A program made the position numbers and the translations under genes. Positions 38,651 to 49,535 of a DNA stretch of 64,000 bases are shown here, one piece after another. Position 1 is the stretch's first letter; each line of letters opens with the position of its first letter. The DNA lies in NCBI GenBank assembly GCA_965112155.1, contig OZ218100.1; one strand, 5' to 3'. Under the pieces are notes generated by a model. That model had not been told where the DNA came from. It ran no database searches and saw only the letters and a list, made by a program, of their open reading frames with translations. Origin of the DNA: Podarcis liolepis (Eukaryota).

Positions 38651-39569
38651 GAATCATAGAATCATAGAGTTGGAAGAGACCACAAGGGCCATCAAGTCCA
38701 ACCCCCTGCCAAGCAGGAAACACCATCAGAGCACTCCTGACATATTGTCAGGGAACTTACATCGGAGCTAGAGGCGGAGGGAAGGCTCTCAAATGATGCT
38801 GGAGAAGGGCCCAGCAGGGAGAGAGGCAGCTCCGCAAATGGGGAAGCAAATCAGCGCAACACCAGGGATATAGAGGGGCTGATGGGGAAATCGGCGAGAG
38901 GGCTCCAGGTCTCTTCACCTGACACCAGCGGGGAGAGCACGGGTCCTCCGCTACCCACGCCCACCCTGCGCAGAAGACTTCCACGCAGAGAGAGTAGGAG
39001 GAGACTGGGTGTCAAACAACTTTTATGTTGGAAAAGATTTAAGAAACGCCCACTGACGGATTCTGCTAGCGACTGAGGCAGCCACGAAGTGAAGGGCTGC
39101 CCAGACTGAAAGGTTTAGCAAGGCAACAAAGCCTGGAGAGGCGGCAACTTACGCACGAGCAACCCATACACATTACACATATGGTTGTCAAGCCTCTGCT
39201 TAAAGACCTCCAAAGTAGGAGACTCCACCACACTCCTTGGCAGCAAATTCCACTGTCGAACAGTTCTTACTGTCAGGAAATTCTTCCTAATGTTTAGGTG
39301 GAATCTTCTTTCTTGTAGTTTGGATCCATTGCTCCGTGTCCGCTTCTCTGGAGCAGCAGAAAACAACCTTTCTCCCTCCTCTATGTGACATCCTTTTATA
39401 TATTTGAACATGGCTATCATATCACCCCTTAACCTCCTCTTCTCCAGGCTAAACATGCCCAGCTCCCTTAGCTTTTCCTCATAAGGCATAGTTTCCAGGC
39501 CTTTGACCATTTTGGTTGCCCTCCTCTGGACACGTTCCAGTTTGTCAGTGTCCTTCTTGAACTGTGGTG
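38651..39569 (-). mobile_element. 5'-truncated young CR1 LINE interrupted by a solo LTR
   Basis: ORF 39115-39576 nearly identical to the C-terminus of the CR1 ORF at 54520-55527; (ATTCTATG)n tail. Confidence 0.93.
38746..39177 (+). mobile_element. Solo LTR (432 bp), probably Gypsy-type
   Basis: TG...CA termini; 5-bp TSD catat (38741-38745, 39178-39182); removing it restores the CR1 sequence cctgacatatggttgtc. Confidence 0.85.
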
Positions 39570-41582
39570 AGTTCAAGTCATTGCACCATGGCTAAAGAAC
39601 CTGTAGTCTTCCCAAAGTTCTTGGATTCCATTAGTCTCAGACAGCATGCCTCATGCCTAGGCATAATAGAAGTTGTAGTACAGCAACAGCCTGAGGGCCC
39701 CTGCATTATTCCTAGCCATATAATCCTAGGTGGAATCCTATACCTACATACCTGGCAGTATGCTCTAGTGAACTGGAGTGGGACTTATTTATGAGTAGAC
39801 ATCAATAGGAAATGCTCTGTAACACAACCAATTATACAGGCAGCTATATATTCCATAATTGCTCCCCTAGAAAACTGTACTTGATTTCATCTATTAAACA
39901 GAGAGGTAAAAGTCTCTGGCTCCATTTAGCAGTCCTTTGAGCAACAGGGTGCATAATTAGCTTTGCAATTCCCTTTTTTAATGTTGGATAATTTGTTAGC
40001 CTTAAATCATTGTATTTTAATTTATTTTCAAAACATTAAATATTAAATATGGTACCACATGACCCCCTAGATGTGATTAATATAAGTAATGATAAAGCAG
40101 GCATATAATTAAATATCCCTTCCATAAATAGACTGCAGAAGGAAGCAGCCATTAAAATAACATTATATTATTGAGAGGGGAAGCATTAGTGCACTCAGTC
40201 TTAATTCTGAACAACAGATACCCAACAAGATTTTTTTATTTTTTTCCTGTGGCTGTTGAAAACTATTTATAGGGCAGTATAATTACATGAGCTGGGAAAG
40301 AGCTACAGTGTTTTCCAAACAAGAAGCCTCGGAGAGATCAGCCATGCTCCTGTGGCTGTTAGATTGCAGGCACTACATGTATTACTCTCCAAGTGAGATG
40401 TTGACCTGCTACTTAGTCGCAAAAATTTAAGGAGGTCAGAACAGCAGAACTTGGCCCTAGGTGATGAGGGTCACGCTTGTGTGCTTCTTCAAGCCACCAA
40501 GGAATATTTCCAGCAGCAGATACACATTCTTCCTTTGTTGTTGAAGGAAAAGCAGCCAGAGGGCCCTCAATCTTGCACCACGCTCCCAATTCTGAACCAT
40601 GTTCTGATCCAAATATCTGGTTTCTGGTGGAAAATTGCTTCCCACCCTTGGCTGCTATTTACAGCAAAGACCACCCTTGCAGGTAGAGAAAGGTTGTTTT
40701 GGGAGATGGGAGGATTTTCAGCTAGAAGTCATCATGAGAACAAGATGGAGAGTGCAGAGTTGACTGGGACCTCATGGCTGCCTTCCCTTCAAAACGAAAG
40801 TGGTATCATCAAACATTATTTTATTTTTAAAGTGTGATTAACCGTGTGTAGTGTGGACCCAAGCCATGCCTACCAGGGCAGGGCATCTGTTGTTAGCTAA
40901 CACAAAGGAGCATGTAGACCTTCTCCAGGCAATTGTTCAGATCATAGGAGAGGATCCGCTGGTTTCTGTGCTGAGCCAAGATGTTTTGCATAGGCTAGGA
41001 CAGAGAGCAGGGAGCATAGGTTTTCTGCTCTTCCATAAAACCAGAGGAGCACAGACACCAGAATTGAGGTTAGTCAGAGAAAGGAAAAGAAGAACCATGT
41101 TCCTTTGTCCACTCAAGACTGTTGTATCACTCCAATGCCTGCAACAAAACTCATGGATCCACTGCTGTCTCTCAATTGTTGTTGAGTGAAATCATTACCA
41201 ATCTAGCCCACATGCAATGGACAAGTAAGCTGTTGTCTAGTGCCTGTTCTGCTGCTTGTCACCAGTTTCGTCATAGGTGGGCTAGGAATGCTAAAAGAAC
41301 TTAGTCTTTCTGAATGTCCTGACCCTGTACCTTCAGAACTACAGGGTGGATCTCATCCTACCTATGCAATGAACTTAATTGTTTTAATGGTGCTCTCAGC
41401 AGTTTTTAAATATATCCAAATTTGCATTTAAATACATGCCTGAATATGCATGGGAAAAGAAAATATGATTTTAAATGTATAGATTGATACAAAATATCAG
41501 CTTTAATGGATGTTAAATTACAGATCAATGTGGAACAGAACTTCAGATAACACAAACCAGAAAGACAGCTTCATCTATCTCT

Positions 41583-41943
41583 AAAGGTAAAGGGACCTCT
41601 GACCATTAAGTCCAGTCGTGGACGACTCTGGGGTTGTGAGTTCATCTCGCTCTATAGGCCGAAGGAACCGACGTTTGTCCGCAGACAGCTTCCAGGTCAT
41701 GTGACCAGCATGACTAAGCCGCTTCTGGAGAACCAAAGCAGCGCACGGAAACACTGTTTACCTTCCTGCTGGAGCGGTACCTATTTATCTACTTGCATTT
41801 TGACGTGCTTTTGAACTGCTAGGTGGGCAGGAGCTGGGACTGAGCAATGGGAGCTCACCCTGTTGCGGGGATTTGAACTGCCGACATTCTGATCCGCAAG
41901 CCCTAGACTCTGTGGTTTAGACCACAGCGCCACCCATGCCCCC
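41583..41943 (-). mobile_element. Sauria SINE
   Basis: aaaggtaaaggg tail at left and accacagcgccaccc head at right; homologous to 35418-35797. Confidence 0.85.
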
Positions 41944-42206
41944 TCATTCATCTCTAGGTACATTTTATTTACTTCTCCAGCAAAATCTATATACCACTAA
42001 CTGAATTCCCCTGCCCCTCAAAAAACCCACACCTGAAAGTTATTTACATAAAACTGAGCTGTTCTATACCACTACTTGAACTTGTGTTGAGCTGTTTAAT
42101 GTCAGCTCTTAGATCCTGTGTTGTCAAGCAGATTTCAATTGTAAAATATTTATTCTCTGCTTTTTTATTAAACCCCATTGCCACCACCATCGGGCAATTG
42201 CAGCAT

Positions 42207-42642
42207 TTGCGTGCTGAGGTCCCACAAACATCCCTAACCCAATAACTCACACATCACACATCATTTTTGTTTAAGGTTTTTGGCATAATTTTGGCCACAA
42301 CTTTATTATCATACAAATTGTGAGTGGTTGCGTAGGCATTGGTTATGACTAGCTATCCCCCCCCGCCTTGGGGGATAGCACTGACTCCCGTATTCCAGCG
42401 CGAGTCAGTGTGGAGGAGCAACCTCAGGGCAACTGGGGCTGCGACACAGACCCTACAGTTCCTCCCTGCTTGCTCCTTGGGGTCTTACGCGGCCCGCACC
42501 CGGCACCACGGGTTTGGACAAGGGGGATGGTAAGCCCCAGAATTCCTTTAACGGAATTCCCATTCAGCAGCAGCATTGGAGGGGTAGGCACAGCCAATCC
42601 ATACCCCTCCACCAACCAATTTGACCAAATGCCTAACCGCCA
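42207..42642 (-). repeat. B terminal region (single copy) with AATAAA at 42307-42302
   Basis: Starts tggcggttaggcatt and contains aataaagttgtggcc, as in B1/B2 of the plus-strand element. Confidence 0.8.
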
Positions 42643-42671
42643 CCCGAGCCCTTAAGCTCGCCGCCAACCAC

Positions 42672-43246
42672 TCACAAGCCAAACCACACCCTCAACCCGG
42701 ACACCACTGTCCCCAACCACACATCATTCCCAACCAATGAAAGATGAACCCCATCATCCCTGTATAATTCAGCAGCTGTGTAGGATATACGAGGGTGAGG
42801 AATCACCAATCCACCCATGCCCACCACCAACTTGCCCACCGCGGAATTAATCCGCTTCCTAACTCTCTCGGTGGATGCTGGGCAGGGACTCCCCCGCCAA
42901 ATGCGGCGTTGAAGCAACTGAGACCAAATTAAAGTGGTATCAGGCACCATGGCCGACAGATCCCTTAAGTCCTGCAAAATGGCCATACGTAGCACATAGC
43001 AAGAAGAGGAAACCAAATCATTTTCCCCTAGCTGCACCACGATCGCCGAAGGAGGGCCAAGCCGGAGAACACGTCTTTGCATAAGCGGCAAGAATTCCCT
43101 CCAGCGCATCCCCCTTCTGTAAATCCAGGACACCTGCACGTGCTGTGGAAGGCCCAGGCCAGCTCCCAATCCAGACTGACGAGCTCTGACAGCAGCCCAA
43201 TGCACGATACTGTGCCCGACTATCCAGATACGGATAGTCTTCACAC
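42672..43246 (-). CDS. SGNH/GDSL-family hydrolase (ORF track 42672-43295; likely entered by splicing at 43246)
   Basis: IWIVGHS, RRGMRW, QLGEND, DGVH; homologous to 23077-23657. Confidence 0.87.
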
Positions 43247-43281
43247 CTAGGGTTAAAACAGAACATAAGTACACAGCCACA

Positions 43282-44145
43282 TTATTTCCGCACATAAGCT
43301 TTGAATGCCTCCGACCTCCACCGACCCAGGTCTTTTATCCTCTTTACCGATAACCCCCAGTGGGCAGCCGTCGTCGCAGCACCAATCCTGAAAGAGTGGG
43401 GGGCGAACTCAGATGCCTGAAGGCCGCATGCCGCCACGGCTTTGCGCAATACCTTAGTGAATTGACGGCGCACCAATGGGTGCCCATTTTCATGAACAAA
43501 CAGAGGCCCTCCACCCTCAGGCCGCCGGGCAAGGTACTTCTTGAGATCCTTTACCGGACAAGGGCCACTTTCCCCCGTCGCTGGGAGACGAATAATGGCT
43601 CCCCTCCCTAGCTGATCCGTCTTGGAATTTCTGATATTAACTTGCAGAGCAGACGGAGACACACTCACATCCTGTAGCAACAGGCCCCTGGAACTTCCAT
43701 CCTGCTTGGGCTCGAGGACCACCTCCCCGACCCTCAGGGCCCCGAAGAAGGCTAATGAGAAGGCTGCTGAAAATAAGCGAGCCTCATATGCCGACCAACA
43801 GATGCTACGTAATTTTTTATGCATCTGTGCCAGCAACTCAAATGTGATAGGCCGTCTAGGCACAGGTCTAGAAGGAGTGAGACGCCCCCATCCCTCCAGG
43901 GCTCTGCGTACCACAAATTTCCCACACGGATCTTTGTTGAAGTATGCCCTGCTAAAAAAGGAAATTGCTGCCGAATGAAGGCGCAGCGTCCTGACCGCCC
44001 GGCGCATCTGGAATAGATGCGCCAAATATTTGAGCACCTGAGATGTGGAATGGGGGGCAGTAACTTCCCCTACAACCGCCTGCCCATTAAATAATAAAAA
44101 ATCTGCCCAGGCCTTTTTATAGGACCGCAACGTAGATGGGGCCAC
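43282..44145 (-). CDS. Tyrosine recombinase (integrase); frame is open upstream to ~44270
   Basis: APSTLRSY N-terminal motif, GALRVGE, SKTDQ, HSFRIG, GRW, AFKAY. Confidence 0.93.
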   Translation of the reverse strand: MAPSTLRSYKKAWADFLLFNGQAVVGEVTAPHSTSQVLKYLAHLFQMRRAVRTLRLHSAAISFFSRAYFNKDPCGKFVVRRALEGWGRLTPSRPVPRRPITFELLAQMHKKLRSICWSAYEARLFSAAFSLAFFGALRVGEVVLEPKQDGSSRGLLLQDVSVSPSALQVNIRNSKTDQLGRGAIIRLPATGESGPCPVKDLKKYLARRPEGGGPLFVHENGHPLVRRQFTKVLRKAVAACGLQASEFAPHSFRIGAATTAAHWGLSVKRIKDLGRWRSEAFKAYVRK

Positions 44146-44168
44146 AGATGCAGCTACTCCCTGTAAAA

Positions 44169-45791
44169 CTAATTGCTGCCAAGGTTCCAGAGATGATCCG
44201 GGAAAATTTCCGGACGGTCTCGAGCCAGTGGCGCCAGGGACCTGAACCGCTCCATCTGAAAACGGGACAGAGCGTCAGCAATCTCATTAGATATGCCCGG
44301 TACGAAACGAGCAGAAAAAACAATGTTACAACGCAAACAATGTAATACAAAAACACGCAGCAAGGCAGATACCCTGGGAGATCGTGAAGACTGCTTGGCT
44401 AGTATATTCACCACCGCCTGGTTATCAGACCAAAAACAAACCCGATGGTCCTTGAAATGCTCAACCCACAGATGCACGGCCACTACAATGGGGAAAAACT
44501 CGAGAAAAGTTAAATCCCGAATTATAGCATCCCCACACCAAGCCGAAGGCCAGCGCTCAGCACACCACCTGCCATCCCAAAACAGACCAAACCCAAGGGA
44601 TCCCGCTGCATCTGAATGCACCTGGAAGTCATTGTGGAGGTTCAAAGTGTCCTGCCACAAGGACACACCATTGAAATCCTCCAGGAACTCCAACCAGATG
44701 TTAAGATCAGCCCGCACCTGACTAGACAGGCGCACCCTATGCTGCGGAGCCTGCAAACCCGCTGTGAGCCTGGCCAGGCGGGAGCAGAAAGGTCGCCCAG
44801 GGGCGACAACCCTGCAAGCAAAATTCAGATGACCTAGCAAGGACTGCAGCTGCCGTAAAGTAACCTTTTTTAACGGAAGCAAGTCCTCAATGACCTTCCT
44901 TAATGTACTAATCTTATCCGCTGGTAAGCTAGAGGTTTGGGCCACGGTATCCAGCCAGATACCCAAATAAGTCATTTTCGTAGAGGGACCTTCAGTCTTT
45001 TCCACCGCCAACGGAACACCTAACTCTTCCGTTAAAGAGGCAAAAGACTGCAACAACACAACGCAGTCCCCTGTATTAGACGCTGAGGCGACCAAAAAAT
45101 CATCCAAATAATGAGTGACCCCGCCCAAACCAGTTTTGTAACGCAGGGCCCACTCCAAAAATGAACTAAAACACTCAAAAGCTGCACAGGCAACAGAACA
45201 CCCCATGGGCATGGCCTTATCGAAGTAAAAACTACCTTCGAACTGGAAACCGAGTAACCAGAAATCACTAGGGTGAATTGGAAGCAGCCGGAATGCCGAC
45301 TCAATGTCGCATTTGGCCAGGAGGGCACCAGGCCCAAACTTCCGGATCATCTTGATCGCGTGATCAAGGGAAGCGTATTTCACCGAACAAAGCCCCGGGG
45401 GAATTACGTCATTTACTGACGTGCCTCTAGGGTGAGAAAGATTATGAATGAGGCGGAATTCCCCAGGGGCCTTCTTAGGGACTATCCCCAAGGGTGAAAT
45501 ATGCAGATTAGAAAAAGGTGGGACAGAAAAGGGGCCGGCCATACGATGTAAAGCCAGTTCTTTCTGTATTTTCCTGCGCGCCACTTCTGGCATTTCTTTT
45601 ACTGATTTCTGGTTAACAAGTCTCCCAGATATAGGGGCTGACGCCACAGGAATCCTGAAGCCTGAGGAGAAGCCCTCACGCAAATAAGACGCCGCTTCCT
45701 TATCAGGGTATCGCTCCAATAAAGACAATAACGGCTGTAGCCGTACTGGGGTATAGGCCAGGGAAGACAGGATACTATTTTCCTGTTCCAA
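44169..45791 (-). CDS. Reverse transcriptase/RNase H, DIRS/Ngaro type
   Basis: SPLGIVPKK, FRLIHNLS, AKCDIESAFR, MPMG, YLDD; RNase H acidic motifs SDAAG, LEFFP, SDN, ADALSR. Confidence 0.95.
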   Translation of the reverse strand: MEQENSILSSLAYTPVRLQPLLSLLERYPDKEAASYLREGFSSGFRIPVASAPISGRLVNQKSVKEMPEVARRKIQKELALHRMAGPFSVPPFSNLHISPLGIVPKKAPGEFRLIHNLSHPRGTSVNDVIPPGLCSVKYASLDHAIKMIRKFGPGALLAKCDIESAFRLLPIHPSDFWLLGFQFEGSFYFDKAMPMGCSVACAAFECFSSFLEWALRYKTGLGGVTHYLDDFLVASASNTGDCVVLLQSFASLTEELGVPLAVEKTEGPSTKMTYLGIWLDTVAQTSSLPADKISTLRKVIEDLLPLKKVTLRQLQSLLGHLNFACRVVAPGRPFCSRLARLTAGLQAPQHRVRLSSQVRADLNIWLEFLEDFNGVSLWQDTLNLHNDFQVHSDAAGSLGFGLFWDGRWCAERWPSAWCGDAIIRDLTFLEFFPIVVAVHLWVEHFKDHRVCFWSDNQAVVNILAKQSSRSPRVSALLRVFVLHCLRCNIVFSARFVPGISNEIADALSRFQMERFRSLAPLARDRPEIFPDHLWNLGSN

Positions 45792-47304
45792 CGGCTGGCA
45801 CCTGGGGAGCAGCTTTAGGGGGCTGCTGAGAGCCCCCTCCTTTTCGAAAGGGACGCCGTCCCGCTACACACGCAGAAGCCGGGTGATTCCCTGAGCACTT
45901 CTCACACGTGTGGGAATACTTGCATGGCTGGCGTTGGCAAACACCCCTGTTAAAGTCCCAACAAAACAACCTGCGCCCCGTCTTTAGAGGGAGCGCCTTG
46001 AATCTCTGTGGATCAGGGGTCTTTTTATCAATCCTGGGGGCCACATAAGTAGACCAAACGTCCAGGTCCTTCCTGTCCCAGCGAGCCGTAGGAATCTTGG
46101 CTGCCCTACGCCTAAAATTCTGGTCATAGGCCAATGCAGCGGCCTCTCCCGCCATCGTAAAGGCAGAACGCACTATGGACAGGTACACCCATAGATGCAA
46201 AGATCTCCTGGGATAAGCTGCGGAAACCACTCCAGCAAAAACCTGAAAACTATCCATCCAGCGTTCGAAAGTCCTATCTGCCTTAGCTACGTACGTACGC
46301 TTTTTTGAGGTAGAAGAGCCTCTATCCAAAGGCTCCTGACCCTCAAGTGGAGGAGCCAGGCTGAAAATGTCCACATACCGCCCATTCAATATCCGGGACC
46401 GCAGTTTAGTGGACAAGTGGGCCCCCGGGATAAGATCCCTGGCCGAATTGGTGGAGACTCTTACGTCAGGAAGCAGAACCCCCTCATGGCACTCTTGCAC
46501 TGCCCCATACCGTGCCCTATGGGAATTCACCCTGCGCTCCCAGATCCACTTAGGAAGCCCTGAGCTCTCACCGAAACCCCAATAAAGCTTAAGGGAAGCT
46601 TCCTCATCACTAGAGGAACTCAAGGACGAAGTACCTGAGGAAGAAGAGGATGACGTGTCTCTCCGTCTCCGCTTTGCGCGCCTCTTGGAGGCCTTCTTCC
46701 GGCGACGGTGCCCACCAGAGGAAGCCCTTGGAGGTGGGGGAAGGCTATCCTCCACGGAAGACTCGGACCCATCACCCTCCTGCGCCATACCTGGAACTGA
46801 CTGAAAAGAGACAACCTGTGAATGACCCGGACTCACTCTCCCGGCCGCAGAAGACTGCACTGTTGCGGTACCCTTACGATGGCCCCGGGTCAACCCCCTC
46901 CTCCTGGCCACAACTCTAGAGCGGCCACGACCCCTAGGTGCGGCCACCTGCGACACAGGTAGAACCGGGGGCTGAGGCAGCTGCACCACTGGAAGGCAAC
47001 CCCCTGCCAACAATGATTCGCTCTCCTCTTCACTAGACAAAGCCCCCGGGGAGGAGACACCCCCAGGAGGAGCCAGCATCGCTGATGAAGTCGAAGGGGT
47101 TGAGCAGCGGTGCAAGATGCCATCCATCTCCGCTTCAACCCGCGCCAGTGCTGCCGAGTCGCCAGCCAAACTGGAGACCATAGATTGGATGCGCTTCAAA
47201 GACTGGCCAGGCACAGGAGAGCGAAGGGCCTGAGACGGGCCTTTTATAGGCCTTTTTGTAGCAGGGGCAGGAACAGGCCTCTTTGTTGCCTTCTTTGGCG
47301 CCAT
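45775..47304 (-). CDS. ORF1, gag-like protein
   Basis: 509 aa; low-complexity basic/Ser-rich N-half, core RILNGRYVDIFSL...LAYDQNFRR, C-terminal Cys/His finger CWDFNRGVCQRQPCKYSHTCEKCSGNHPASAC. Confidence 0.88.
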   Translation of the reverse strand: MAPKKATKRPVPAPATKRPIKGPSQALRSPVPGQSLKRIQSMVSSLAGDSAALARVEAEMDGILHRCSTPSTSSAMLAPPGGVSSPGALSSEEESESLLAGGCLPVVQLPQPPVLPVSQVAAPRGRGRSRVVARRRGLTRGHRKGTATVQSSAAGRVSPGHSQVVSFQSVPGMAQEGDGSESSVEDSLPPPPRASSGGHRRRKKASKRRAKRRRRDTSSSSSSGTSSLSSSSDEEASLKLYWGFGESSGLPKWIWERRVNSHRARYGAVQECHEGVLLPDVRVSTNSARDLIPGAHLSTKLRSRILNGRYVDIFSLAPPLEGQEPLDRGSSTSKKRTYVAKADRTFERWMDSFQVFAGVVSAAYPRRSLHLWVYLSIVRSAFTMAGEAAALAYDQNFRRRAAKIPTARWDRKDLDVWSTYVAPRIDKKTPDPQRFKALPLKTGRRLFCWDFNRGVCQRQPCKYSHTCEKCSGNHPASACVAGRRPFRKGGGSQQPPKAAPQVPAVGTGK

Positions 47305-48489
47305 TCCTGTAGCTGGTATAATAAAGCAAAATTAATCAACAAGGAAGAACAAACAATAAAATTAAACAATAAAGAAGTTTTGTTTTATTATATTATTACT
47401 ATTAAGTGGAAGGTAAGAATGGCTGAAAATAAAATAAAATAAATTAATAAATGACCAGCAGGCAAGCTGTGACCAGTCGCTACTAAACAGTGCAATACTT
47501 GGCCACCAATGAAACAGGCTGCAAAACCAATGCAATTAACAACCAGCAGTAAAAGCCACCACCAGCGTTGGCTATTGCCTCACAACCCAACAAGTGACAA
47601 GGCCTGCTGTTAAGCACAAGCAGGCCTGGTCGATACCAGGCCTGGCCACTAGAGGCCGCTGCTGCACCAGAAAGGGGACAAAATGGCGCTCCCGCCAAAA
47701 TCGCCTCAAAATGGCGGACCTGCCACACCCCACCTAGGACAAACCTACAAGGTAAGAAAACTGGGGCGAGGTCAGCGCTGAGAGGAGCCCCAGGCCCAAG
47801 GCCACACCGGCAAAGGGTCAGGCGATCGCGGGGCGCGTGGGTGCTGCGCAGAGCCGCCGATTCCCCGGCCCCGTCCCCCGCGCGCTAGGCAAGGCCGCCC
47901 GAGCCTCCGAGCCCCGCCCTGGAGGCCGACGGGCACCCGCGCGCCAAGGCCCTGGTCCTACCGCTCCAAACGGGGCCCGAAATCGACGCAAGCCGGCAGA
48001 AACCGCCCCGCCGCTCAGCTGAGCCAGGGGACGCGTCTAGGGAAGCCGCTCGGCGCGCCGCCCCCACCCGCTAGCCCCCGACGAGATCGGGATGGACCCA
48101 GGAGTGGGAGGGAAACGGAAGGCCCGATCCGGGCCGAGGAGCGCCGGGCGATCCCAGAGCCGGTAGGCCCCGCGGAAGGTGAACTGCGCGGCGCAGCAGG
48201 GCTCCACGCGCACCGAGGCGCGCCCCGCATGGGAGTCTAGGCACCCCGGCCCGGGCGCCCAGCCGCGATCCGGCTGCCGGCTGCCCGGTCAGAAGCCCCC
48301 CTCCCCGGCAAGATGAGGTATTAAATATGAGGTGAGAGAAAATTAAATAATGAGCAAGGGATAAGGAAACAGGAGGGAATTAATACAACAAATTAAAAAG
48401 GAGAAATAAAGAGTAGAAATAAATCAGGGGAGAAGAGTACAACCAGTCTCTCGCTGTTCACTCCGATACAGATGATCCAGTGTCCACAG

Positions 48490-48686
48490 CGAAAGAGAAA
48501 GGAACAAGCTGTGCACCTTGTATAAATAACCTCTGATCCCACCCATTAAATTGGCAACATCAATTTTTCCCTAGTAACAACAACCACCAATCTGACCCAA
48601 GTCCCTTGCAACAGCCTGGCTAGTAACTGAGGATGCTTGTCCGGCCCCATCCGCAACACGTGCTCTCCTCTTAGTGAGAACACGCT
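48490..48686 (-). promoter_or_regulatory. Putative Pol II promoter in the A terminal region
   Basis: TATTTATA at 48528-48521, CCAAT at 48554-48550, E-box CACGTG at 48657-48662, pyrimidine-rich initiator-like tract ~25 nt downstream of the TATA. Confidence 0.5.
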
Positions 48687-49535
48687 TTGCCATAGCCTAA
48701 TTAGAATTAGATCTATAGTTCTCAGCTATTATTACAGGAACATCTAATAAACAAACTTCACAGAAAACTTGAATGAACAGATGATGGTGGTAAATCATAC
48801 ATGAACAGCAGATTCCATAAAATGTGATCAGTTTCAGGGCTTGCAATAGCCATATATTTGAGGGCCTGAGATCTACCAAATAAATAAATATATACCATTG
48901 AAAAATATAATTACAATCCTTTCTGTAGCTCAACAGGAAGCGAGAGAATCCTCATCCTTCCGGCAATGCAAAGCTTAAAATAGTAAACAACAGTAGACTG
49001 ATTTCTGAATGCGTTAAGCATGGCATTTTCATCTCTTTAATTTTCACTTGTTCCTGGAAACCTTTGAGTGTGCAATGGCAAAAGAACTGCAGCTTTATTT
49101 TCTGGTTAAATATTACAAATATTAATAATTCATGTGTGGACTATATATTATTAATCTTGTTTAGCAGCTAGACAGAAGCTGTGTGCAAGTGGCTGTGGTT
49201 AAAGAGACTCACAGCTCTTTCCCAACAGACGCAGAGAAAAGTATACCACAGTGTATGGGGCTACACTGGTACAAAATGGTCAGTGTACAAAATGGTTCAT
49301 TGATGTGTGTGTCTATACACACAGCCTCTGCTATAAAAAGGATAGAGGGATGCTCTTTTATGCAACGAAAAGACTGGTAGATTATTATTTTTCTTTTCTT
49401 TTCTGGCTCGCAGTTCTAGCAACCAGTGTTATGTCTTTACTGACTGGTTGTTTTGAGTACATCTTTTTTCTACTTTAGTGATAAACATTGCATGCGGAAA
49501 GTGCTGGGTTTTTCTTTCGTTTTAGAAGAATTATA

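Follow-up and report, generated by a model that had tools for sequence, protein, structure and literature searches.

The closest described relatives of the element analyzed here are amphibian-type Ngaro retrotransposons with an SGNH hydrolase open reading frame (ORF), such as DIRS-53_XT, which, in the parts of PMC9210276 consulted, carry gag-like, reverse transcriptase/RNase H (RT/RH), tyrosine recombinase (YR), and SGNH ORFs, split direct repeats of the form A1...B1A2B2, and no methyltransferase ORF. How the overlapping, start-less ORFs of YR retrotransposons are expressed is unsettled; according to the review of Poulter and Butler (2015), as quoted in PMC13003380, YR is probably made by ribosomal frameshifting from RT/RH. 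The present analysis concerns an intact 6.5-kb Ngaro element on the minus strand (48690-42206) of a 64,000-nucleotide (nt) stretch of Podarcis liolepis contig OZ218100.1 (assembly GCA_965112155.1), called the window below; all features of the element lie on that strand. Its four long frames (ORF1, RT/RNase H, YR, and SGNH) very probably give four proteins from a single ORF1 start codon, RT by way of a frameshift, and YR and SGNH by way of one splice donor with two acceptors.

Splicing and introns go unmentioned in the consulted parts of PMC9210276, in which the hydrolase has no proven function, whereas in the window copy, which lacks the A2-B2 tail, splice signals and a shift motif could be located. 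The shift motif resembles the UUU_CGN sites of influenza PA-X (PMC3498833) and amalgaviruses (PMC5052127), for which the sections consulted likewise place YCC_UUU_CGN in the zero frame and a second ORF in the +1 frame; unlike that of PA-X, the motif here lies in a vertebrate retrotransposon and is predicted to serve Gag-Pol. A basic tract N-terminal to SGNH also occurs in the ORF1 protein of ZfL2-1 and other CR1-clade long interspersed nuclear elements (LINEs), for which RNA binding and membrane targeting have been proposed; a first-pass annotation of the window had cited such LINE proteins, with an Arg-rich motif and an SGNH esterase, and the passages seen of PMC3905857 confirm them. In ZfL2-1-type LINEs the arrangement is a single ORF, whereas here it would arise only via splicing, as an isoform separate from Gag. 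Retroviruses produce gag-pol by frameshifting and env by splicing. The plan proposed here is similar in its use of unspliced RNA for Gag and Gag-Pol, of spliced RNA for the 3' gene, and of an acceptor within pol codons, and it differs in that the recombinase would be on spliced RNA, the shift would be +1, and the spliced products would retain 223 ORF1 residues.

Native splicing of Ngaro ORFs is not described in the parts seen of PMC9210276, PMC3783388, PMC3266345, PMC6681497, PMC8547959, PMC7192593, PMC9341512, and PMC8226300. Our literature searches turned up neither splicing in Ngaro nor a UUU_CGN shift in DIRS/Ngaro elements, although subscription papers, Repbase reports, or supplements may describe either; DIRS and Ngaro go unnamed in the first 300,000 of the 449,034 characters of a frameshifting review (PMC5009743). 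The Ngaro family is known, and its expression plan appears to be undescribed.

One probable ORF1 donor and two probable acceptors

A DNA search of the 1.57-Gb genome gave 299 candidates, 40 of which were scored. The window copy and 39 others form a close set with 75 to 97% identity across the element body; a diverged set holds 40 further loci of more distant families, with RT mostly 60 to 80% alike in amino acids and ORF1 only 40 to 50% alike. Trees were built from the 40 close copies alone, and synonymous changes were counted on the tree.

ORF1 (45775..47304, ATG at 47304) encodes a gag-like protein of 509 amino acids with a weak CCCH zinc-finger match at residues 447 to 465. An Arg/Lys-rich tract (46660..46710), which is retained in all families parsed and would be common to the four predicted products, lies directly upstream of a putative donor, CAG/GTACTT (46629..46637, exon end 46635), set in synonymous positions of Ser-Gly-Thr codons; the 670 nt from the ATG to the donor place it in phase 1. 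CAG/GT at 46635/46634 is present in all 40 close copies, and among the 10 GTs kept in at least 39 of the 40 ORF1 copies it is the sole one in phase 1, the other nine starting Val codons. The two fourfold-degenerate third positions flanking the donor do not change anywhere on the tree, whereas the 206 fourfold sites of ORF1 average 6.07 changes. Only 6 of these sites are unchanged: two in the donor codons, three within or immediately following the frameshift motif, and one at 46821. Among the diverged loci, 17 of 40 have an open ORF1 (23 have none of at least 430 amino acids), and after exclusion of L092, whose start was misparsed, a phase-1 G/GTAC follows the basic tract, 14 to 16 codons ahead of YWG, in 16 of 16; several of these donors have the stronger form G/GTACGT. 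The first-pass annotation had placed the donor at the same position and in the same phase and had called it the weakest part of its model, a judgment that this invariance and recurrence do not sustain.

Another phase-1 GT, at 46790, scores higher than the donor and was rejected because it is not conserved among copies. The unchanged site at 46821 belongs to a Ser TCA codon (46821-46819) without a third-position change in 40 copies, which neither donor nor frameshift explains. The basic/Ser segment is duplicated in ORF1 of L053, L054, and L058-L060 and in proteins P0158 and P0171-P0174; the upstream duplicate appears without the Gly-Thr donor, which leaves one donor.

The candidate YR acceptor, a pyrimidine tract followed by CAG (44256..44273), is embedded in the ALSRFQ codons of RNase H. 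The YR frame spans 44274-43282, and the predicted exon (43282..44255) has 323 codons past the split codon, matches Phage_integrase and Phage_int_SAM_4, and has its first Met 82 codons in. Joined to the donor, it gives an open frame of 547 amino acids across a 2,379-nt intron; the coordinates and phase proposed earlier for this join hold. The ALSRFQ codons have 0 third-position changes, the fewest of 501 six-codon RT windows (the best nonoverlapping window has 7), and 0 of 200,000 residue-matched random draws equaled this. The acceptor pattern was parsed in 77 of the 80 loci and failed in 3; since the 77-locus counts of Ser, Arg, Phe, and Gln codons are conditioned by the search pattern, the unbiased counts are those from the 40 close copies and the diverged loci found by protein motif, and CAG/AT is present in all 35 of the latter. 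A stop shuts the YR frame 7 to 11 codons upstream in 77 of 77 loci, and only 15 of 77 have a Met within 35 codons. A likely branch sequence, CTAAY (44286..44290), derives from an invariant Ser TCT and lies about 31 nt from the acceptor AG; some YTRAY is present in that zone in 68 of 77 loci. The branch point named earlier, CTGAC at 44278-44274, has correct coordinates and is probably wrong: most copies read GCCGAT or GCTGAT there, the Ala codon has 6 changes, and CTAAY fits better.

The SGNH frame spans 43334-42672. Its candidate acceptor (43247..43271) consists of a branch-like CTTAY/CTCAC (43269-43265), a T tract, and TAG, and the exon (42672..43246) has 190 codons past the split codon with GHS, GEND, and DGVH motifs; the donor-to-SGNH join is open for 414 amino acids across a 3,388-nt intron, in agreement with the position and phase first proposed. 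SGNH motifs are lacking in 6 of the 80 loci; 72 of the 74 others have a pyrimidine tract and YAG ahead of SGNH, the remaining 2 falling under the pyrimidine cutoff, and this acceptor is in phase 1 in 71 of the 72. The spacer between the YR stop and the SGNH acceptor falls into the three frames 23, 22, and 21 times (6 unparsed), with no fixed frame to YR, and 30 of 72 loci have no in-frame Met ahead of GHS; because of these even spacer frames and missing Met codons, read-through, frameshifting, or a fixed start of its own would not suffice for SGNH.

The alignments thus establish the four frames, their phases, and the conservation of synonymous positions at the donor, both acceptors, and the slippery motif, and the signals of a U2-type intron (GT donor, branch sequence, pyrimidine tract, and YAG) appear to be under selection. 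We are quite confident that splicing from the donor at 46635 occurs. That one phase-1 ORF1 donor serves both YR and SGNH, as first suggested for the window, draws support both from synonymous-site conservation in the two locus sets (40 close, 40 diverged) and from public gene models of Podarcis, Zootoca, and geckos.

A predicted +1 shift and the proposed expression plan

The RT/RNase H frame (44169..45863) is +1 to ORF1 and has 564 codons from stop to stop; its first Met is at codon 91 in the window copy, a position that varies among copies. Where ORF1 overlaps RT, the window copy reads CCC_TTT_CGA in the ORF1 frame (45844..45852), the predicted +1 site by motif conservation. YCC TTT CG is present there in 40 of 40 close copies; of the 39 that were parsed, 37 have it in frame, and the other 2 carry a 1-nt indel immediately upstream of the motif. 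In the diverged set, 9 of the 40 loci could not be parsed (nor could L038 among the close copies); YCC TTT is found in 31 of 31 parsed loci and CGN in 28 of 31, the exceptions being TGA, TGG, and CAG, compared with a baseline codon use of 59% TTT, 49% CGN, and 30% CCC. The +1 frame of the window copy is open for 559 codons from the motif onward and shut 15 nt upstream. YCC_UUU_CGN in the zero frame, conserved synonymous positions, and an open +1 ORF downstream are what characterizes UUU_CGN shift sites, and all three are present here; the UCC_UUU_CGU of influenza PA-X shifts +1 at about 1%, as demonstrated by mass spectrometry in the portion seen of PMC3498833. A +1 shift at CCC_UUU_CGA would thus probably yield Gag-RT/RNase H. 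The earlier proposal that one promoter could give four proteins stands for the YR and SGNH splice routes; it named no route for RT, which the conserved +1 motif likely supplies.

ORF1 and RT are fused in one frame in L038, L051, and L055, as are RT and YR in L097; in L051 and L055, a lengthened G run behind the motif causes the fusion. Homopolymer errors in the assembly, or decay of the copies, may account for these fusions.

Under the proposed plan, unspliced RNA would give ORF1 (Gag-like) and, with the +1 shift, a Gag-RT/RNase H fusion of about 1,044 amino acids; splicing of the donor to 44255 would give ORF1N-YR (547 amino acids), and splicing to 43246 would give ORF1N-SGNH (414 amino acids). 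A modest donor may spare most of the RNA from splicing, so that it can be packaged, and the 223-residue N terminus that YR and SGNH share, with its basic tract, may direct both to element RNA or to the nucleus. We lean toward the broader view that vertebrate Ngaro elements share an undescribed retrovirus-like plan, in which a PA-X-type +1 shift for Gag-Pol is combined with one-donor, two-acceptor YR and esterase isoforms that carry the basic N terminus of ORF1; the phase-1 SGNH exon would also explain repeated esterase capture into lizard and fish host genes. The plan assigns each of the three downstream proteins a precise site that can be tested, adds 223 N-terminal residues to each of the predicted YR and SGNH proteins, and, if true, makes a retrotransposon family one of the few known users of a UUU_CGN +1 frameshift.

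Gene models, RNA reads, and competing explanations

Of the 44 public SGNH models that are extended N-terminally, 22 run from the ORF1 Ser tract into SGNH at the homologous donor (Podarcis muralis, P. raffonei, P. lilfordi, and Zootoca). Isoforms X1 (ORF1N-YR) and X2 (ORF1N-SGNH) of Zootoca LOC118082278 have 207 identical residues and diverge from the split codon, protein models P0047 and P0148 contain the predicted YR junction, and Paroedura YR and SGNH models break at the matching place. RefSeq models with several isoforms are usually built on aligned transcripts. The RefSeq models LOC118082278 X1/X2 and Podarcis LOC114596625 and LOC144327882 have joins at sites homologous to those predicted here, and they are annotated as uncharacterized host genes rather than as retrotransposon isoforms; Ngaro isoforms probably underlie many of the squamate and amphibian gene models now called "uncharacterized."

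Several observations weigh against the plan. The other 22 of the 44 SGNH models comprise 9 long Zootoca fusions, 9 joined from inside YR, 3 read-through models, and 1 with another donor; many YR models have an internal Met as their start or fuse RT with YR; and all of these models are predictions whose underlying RNA support is not visible. Among the protein matches, none that clearly came from a contig (Logan/ENA) had a spliced join. Four raw read runs mapped to the window contained no donor-to-acceptor joint at a depth of mostly 0 to 1 over the element body, which is too low to test splicing; two contig sets, whose RNA origin is a guess, and two raw runs compared with L053 gave no match among the 15 of 30 joints shown. 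Two 2.4-kb contigs that seem to start near the donor were not used, as copy variation at the next codon explains them equally well. Five junction patterns detected no processed (spliced) DNA copy, compared with 190 matches for the unspliced control. On a simple weight matrix, the window donor is weak, and because it ranks 21st of 414 GTs its support lies in conservation and not in score. Synonymous codon use across ADALSRFQ, proposed earlier as a check for pyrimidine bias, agrees as far as the constraint on ALSRFQ goes, but its Leu codon ends in a purine in 77 of 77 loci, counter to a simple pyrimidine rule. Finally, shared ancestry makes the locus counts nonindependent, with 6 clusters at 70% ORF1 identity.

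Four other explanations have to be weighed against these data. The presumption of Poulter and Butler, that a programmed frameshift from the RT/RH frame makes YR, with ALSRFQ kept as a shift site or for dual coding, agrees with the 35-codon RT/YR overlap, across the whole of which RT third positions are constrained; yet no canonical -1 slippery heptamer X_XXY_YYZ occurs in the overlap in any of 77 loci, such a shift would leave the invariant ORF1 donor unexplained, as well as SGNH, whose spacer varies in frame relative to YR, and public isoforms join ORF1N to YR, so that we regard it as improbable. Splicing might also start from a leader donor, since the YAG ahead of ORF1 is in phase 1 as well and a single upstream exon could thus serve ORF1, YR, and SGNH alike. 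The leader (47305..48472, about 1.2 kb) does end in YAG-R-N-ATG after a T-rich tract in 40 of 40 copies, which makes the acceptor-like tract noted earlier before ORF1 a possible acceptor; however, the leaders of the 40 copies yielded no conserved donor, they have 0 to 1 ATG in 37 of 40, and public models take the donor inside ORF1. A leader donor is therefore very unlikely, and because the leader is ATG-poor and without a conserved donor, the ORF1 ATG is likely the sole start.

If YR and SGNH are spliced as proposed here, RT could still come from an acceptor of its own, reinitiation, or leaky scanning, with Pro-Phe-Arg kept for protein reasons. The low, roughly 1% efficiency of PA-X-type shifting (in the part seen of PMC3498833) and the purely sequence-based case for a shift at this locus favor this alternative, as does a +1 frame that, in many copies, is already open well ahead of the motif. 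Protein constraint, however, would not fix TTT, CGN, and YCC; the close copies contain no invariant pyrimidine-rich AG at the RT 5' end, a candidate phase-1 AG at 45745 was rejected because it is not among the invariant AGs, and the variable first Met, so far into the frame, also argues against it. We consider such a route for RT unlikely. It would be more surprising still, and we give it very little weight, if the sites were kept for another nucleic-acid role (packaging, priming, or RNA structure) and the gene models were ab initio artifacts: the low-depth RNA has no junction read and the gene models are inconsistent, but three separate sites match the consensus of a donor or an acceptor, with a single compatible phase, in families only 40 to 50% alike in ORF1, and both joins occur at one locus as named isoforms.

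Other gene models touch on the same frames. Eublepharis isoforms of 466 and 467 amino acids (P0092, P0155, and P0156) include P0156 with one residue more than P0092 at the ORF1N-YR junction, as from tandem splice sites. Part of YR is joined to SGNH in P0179, P0181, P0024, P0091, P0164, and P0165, some of them named isoforms in Ranitomeya, and such models may mark YR-internal donors in other families. Long host-like proteins that end in or repeat a Ngaro-like SGNH domain occur in Zootoca, Lacerta, geckos, and several fishes, one of them from a Logan contig (P0019, P0150-P0154, P0197, P0198, P0182, P0188, P0282, P0285, P0302, and P0308); it is possible that the SGNH exon was repeatedly domesticated into host proteins.

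Family assignment, repeats, and surroundings

A Pfam search of the frames matched RVT_1 (E value 5.6e-12), Phage_integrase (1.1e-7), and Phage_int_SAM_4 (6e-5), and the SGNH frame matched Lipase_GDSL_2 at 6e-4, weaker than the curated cutoff. The closest named proteins are from Podarcis, at 80% in SGNH. The RT and YR translations carry YLDD and R...HSFRIG...Y motifs. As in Ngaro elements, an RT/RNase H ORF is combined with a tyrosine recombinase instead of a DDE integrase; the RT frame stops after RNase H, with RVT_1 the sole domain found, there is no methyltransferase, and the SGNH ORF follows YR. By these domains and this layout, the element is a member of the known family with the amphibian-type Ngaro plan.

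The full A1...B1-A2-B2 split direct repeats are found in 29 of the 40 close copies. A2-B2 is absent from the other 11 (the window copy, L031, L032, L033, L037, L039-L041, L050, L059, and L062), and copies that end at B1 are as expected after recombination between B1 and B2. The window copy (42206..48690) accordingly has the A1...B1 form, with GCAAA at either end (48690-48681 and 42215-42206). Its A1 repeat (48473..48690) contains a TATA-like box at 48528-48521, the likely promoter, and its B1 repeat (42206..42645) has AATAAA at 42307-42302. B1-A2 junctions (L034-L069) read CACGC-AAA-GCGTG, an inverted repeat flanking a short A core, which looks like a recombinase crossover site.

Within the otherwise unalignable, GC-rich leader, a block near 47699-47627 is conserved, with motifs that we take to resemble E2F, YY1, and CTCF sites. 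Outside the element, the window has a short repeat at 41805-41942, presumably like a short interspersed nuclear element, with hundreds of RNA reads originating from many other copies, and at 39115-39591 what we take to be a CR1-like RT fragment. In the genome, one 40-Mb contig (C20) holds a large share of the matches to the diverged family and is possibly, at a guess, a repeat-rich sex chromosome.

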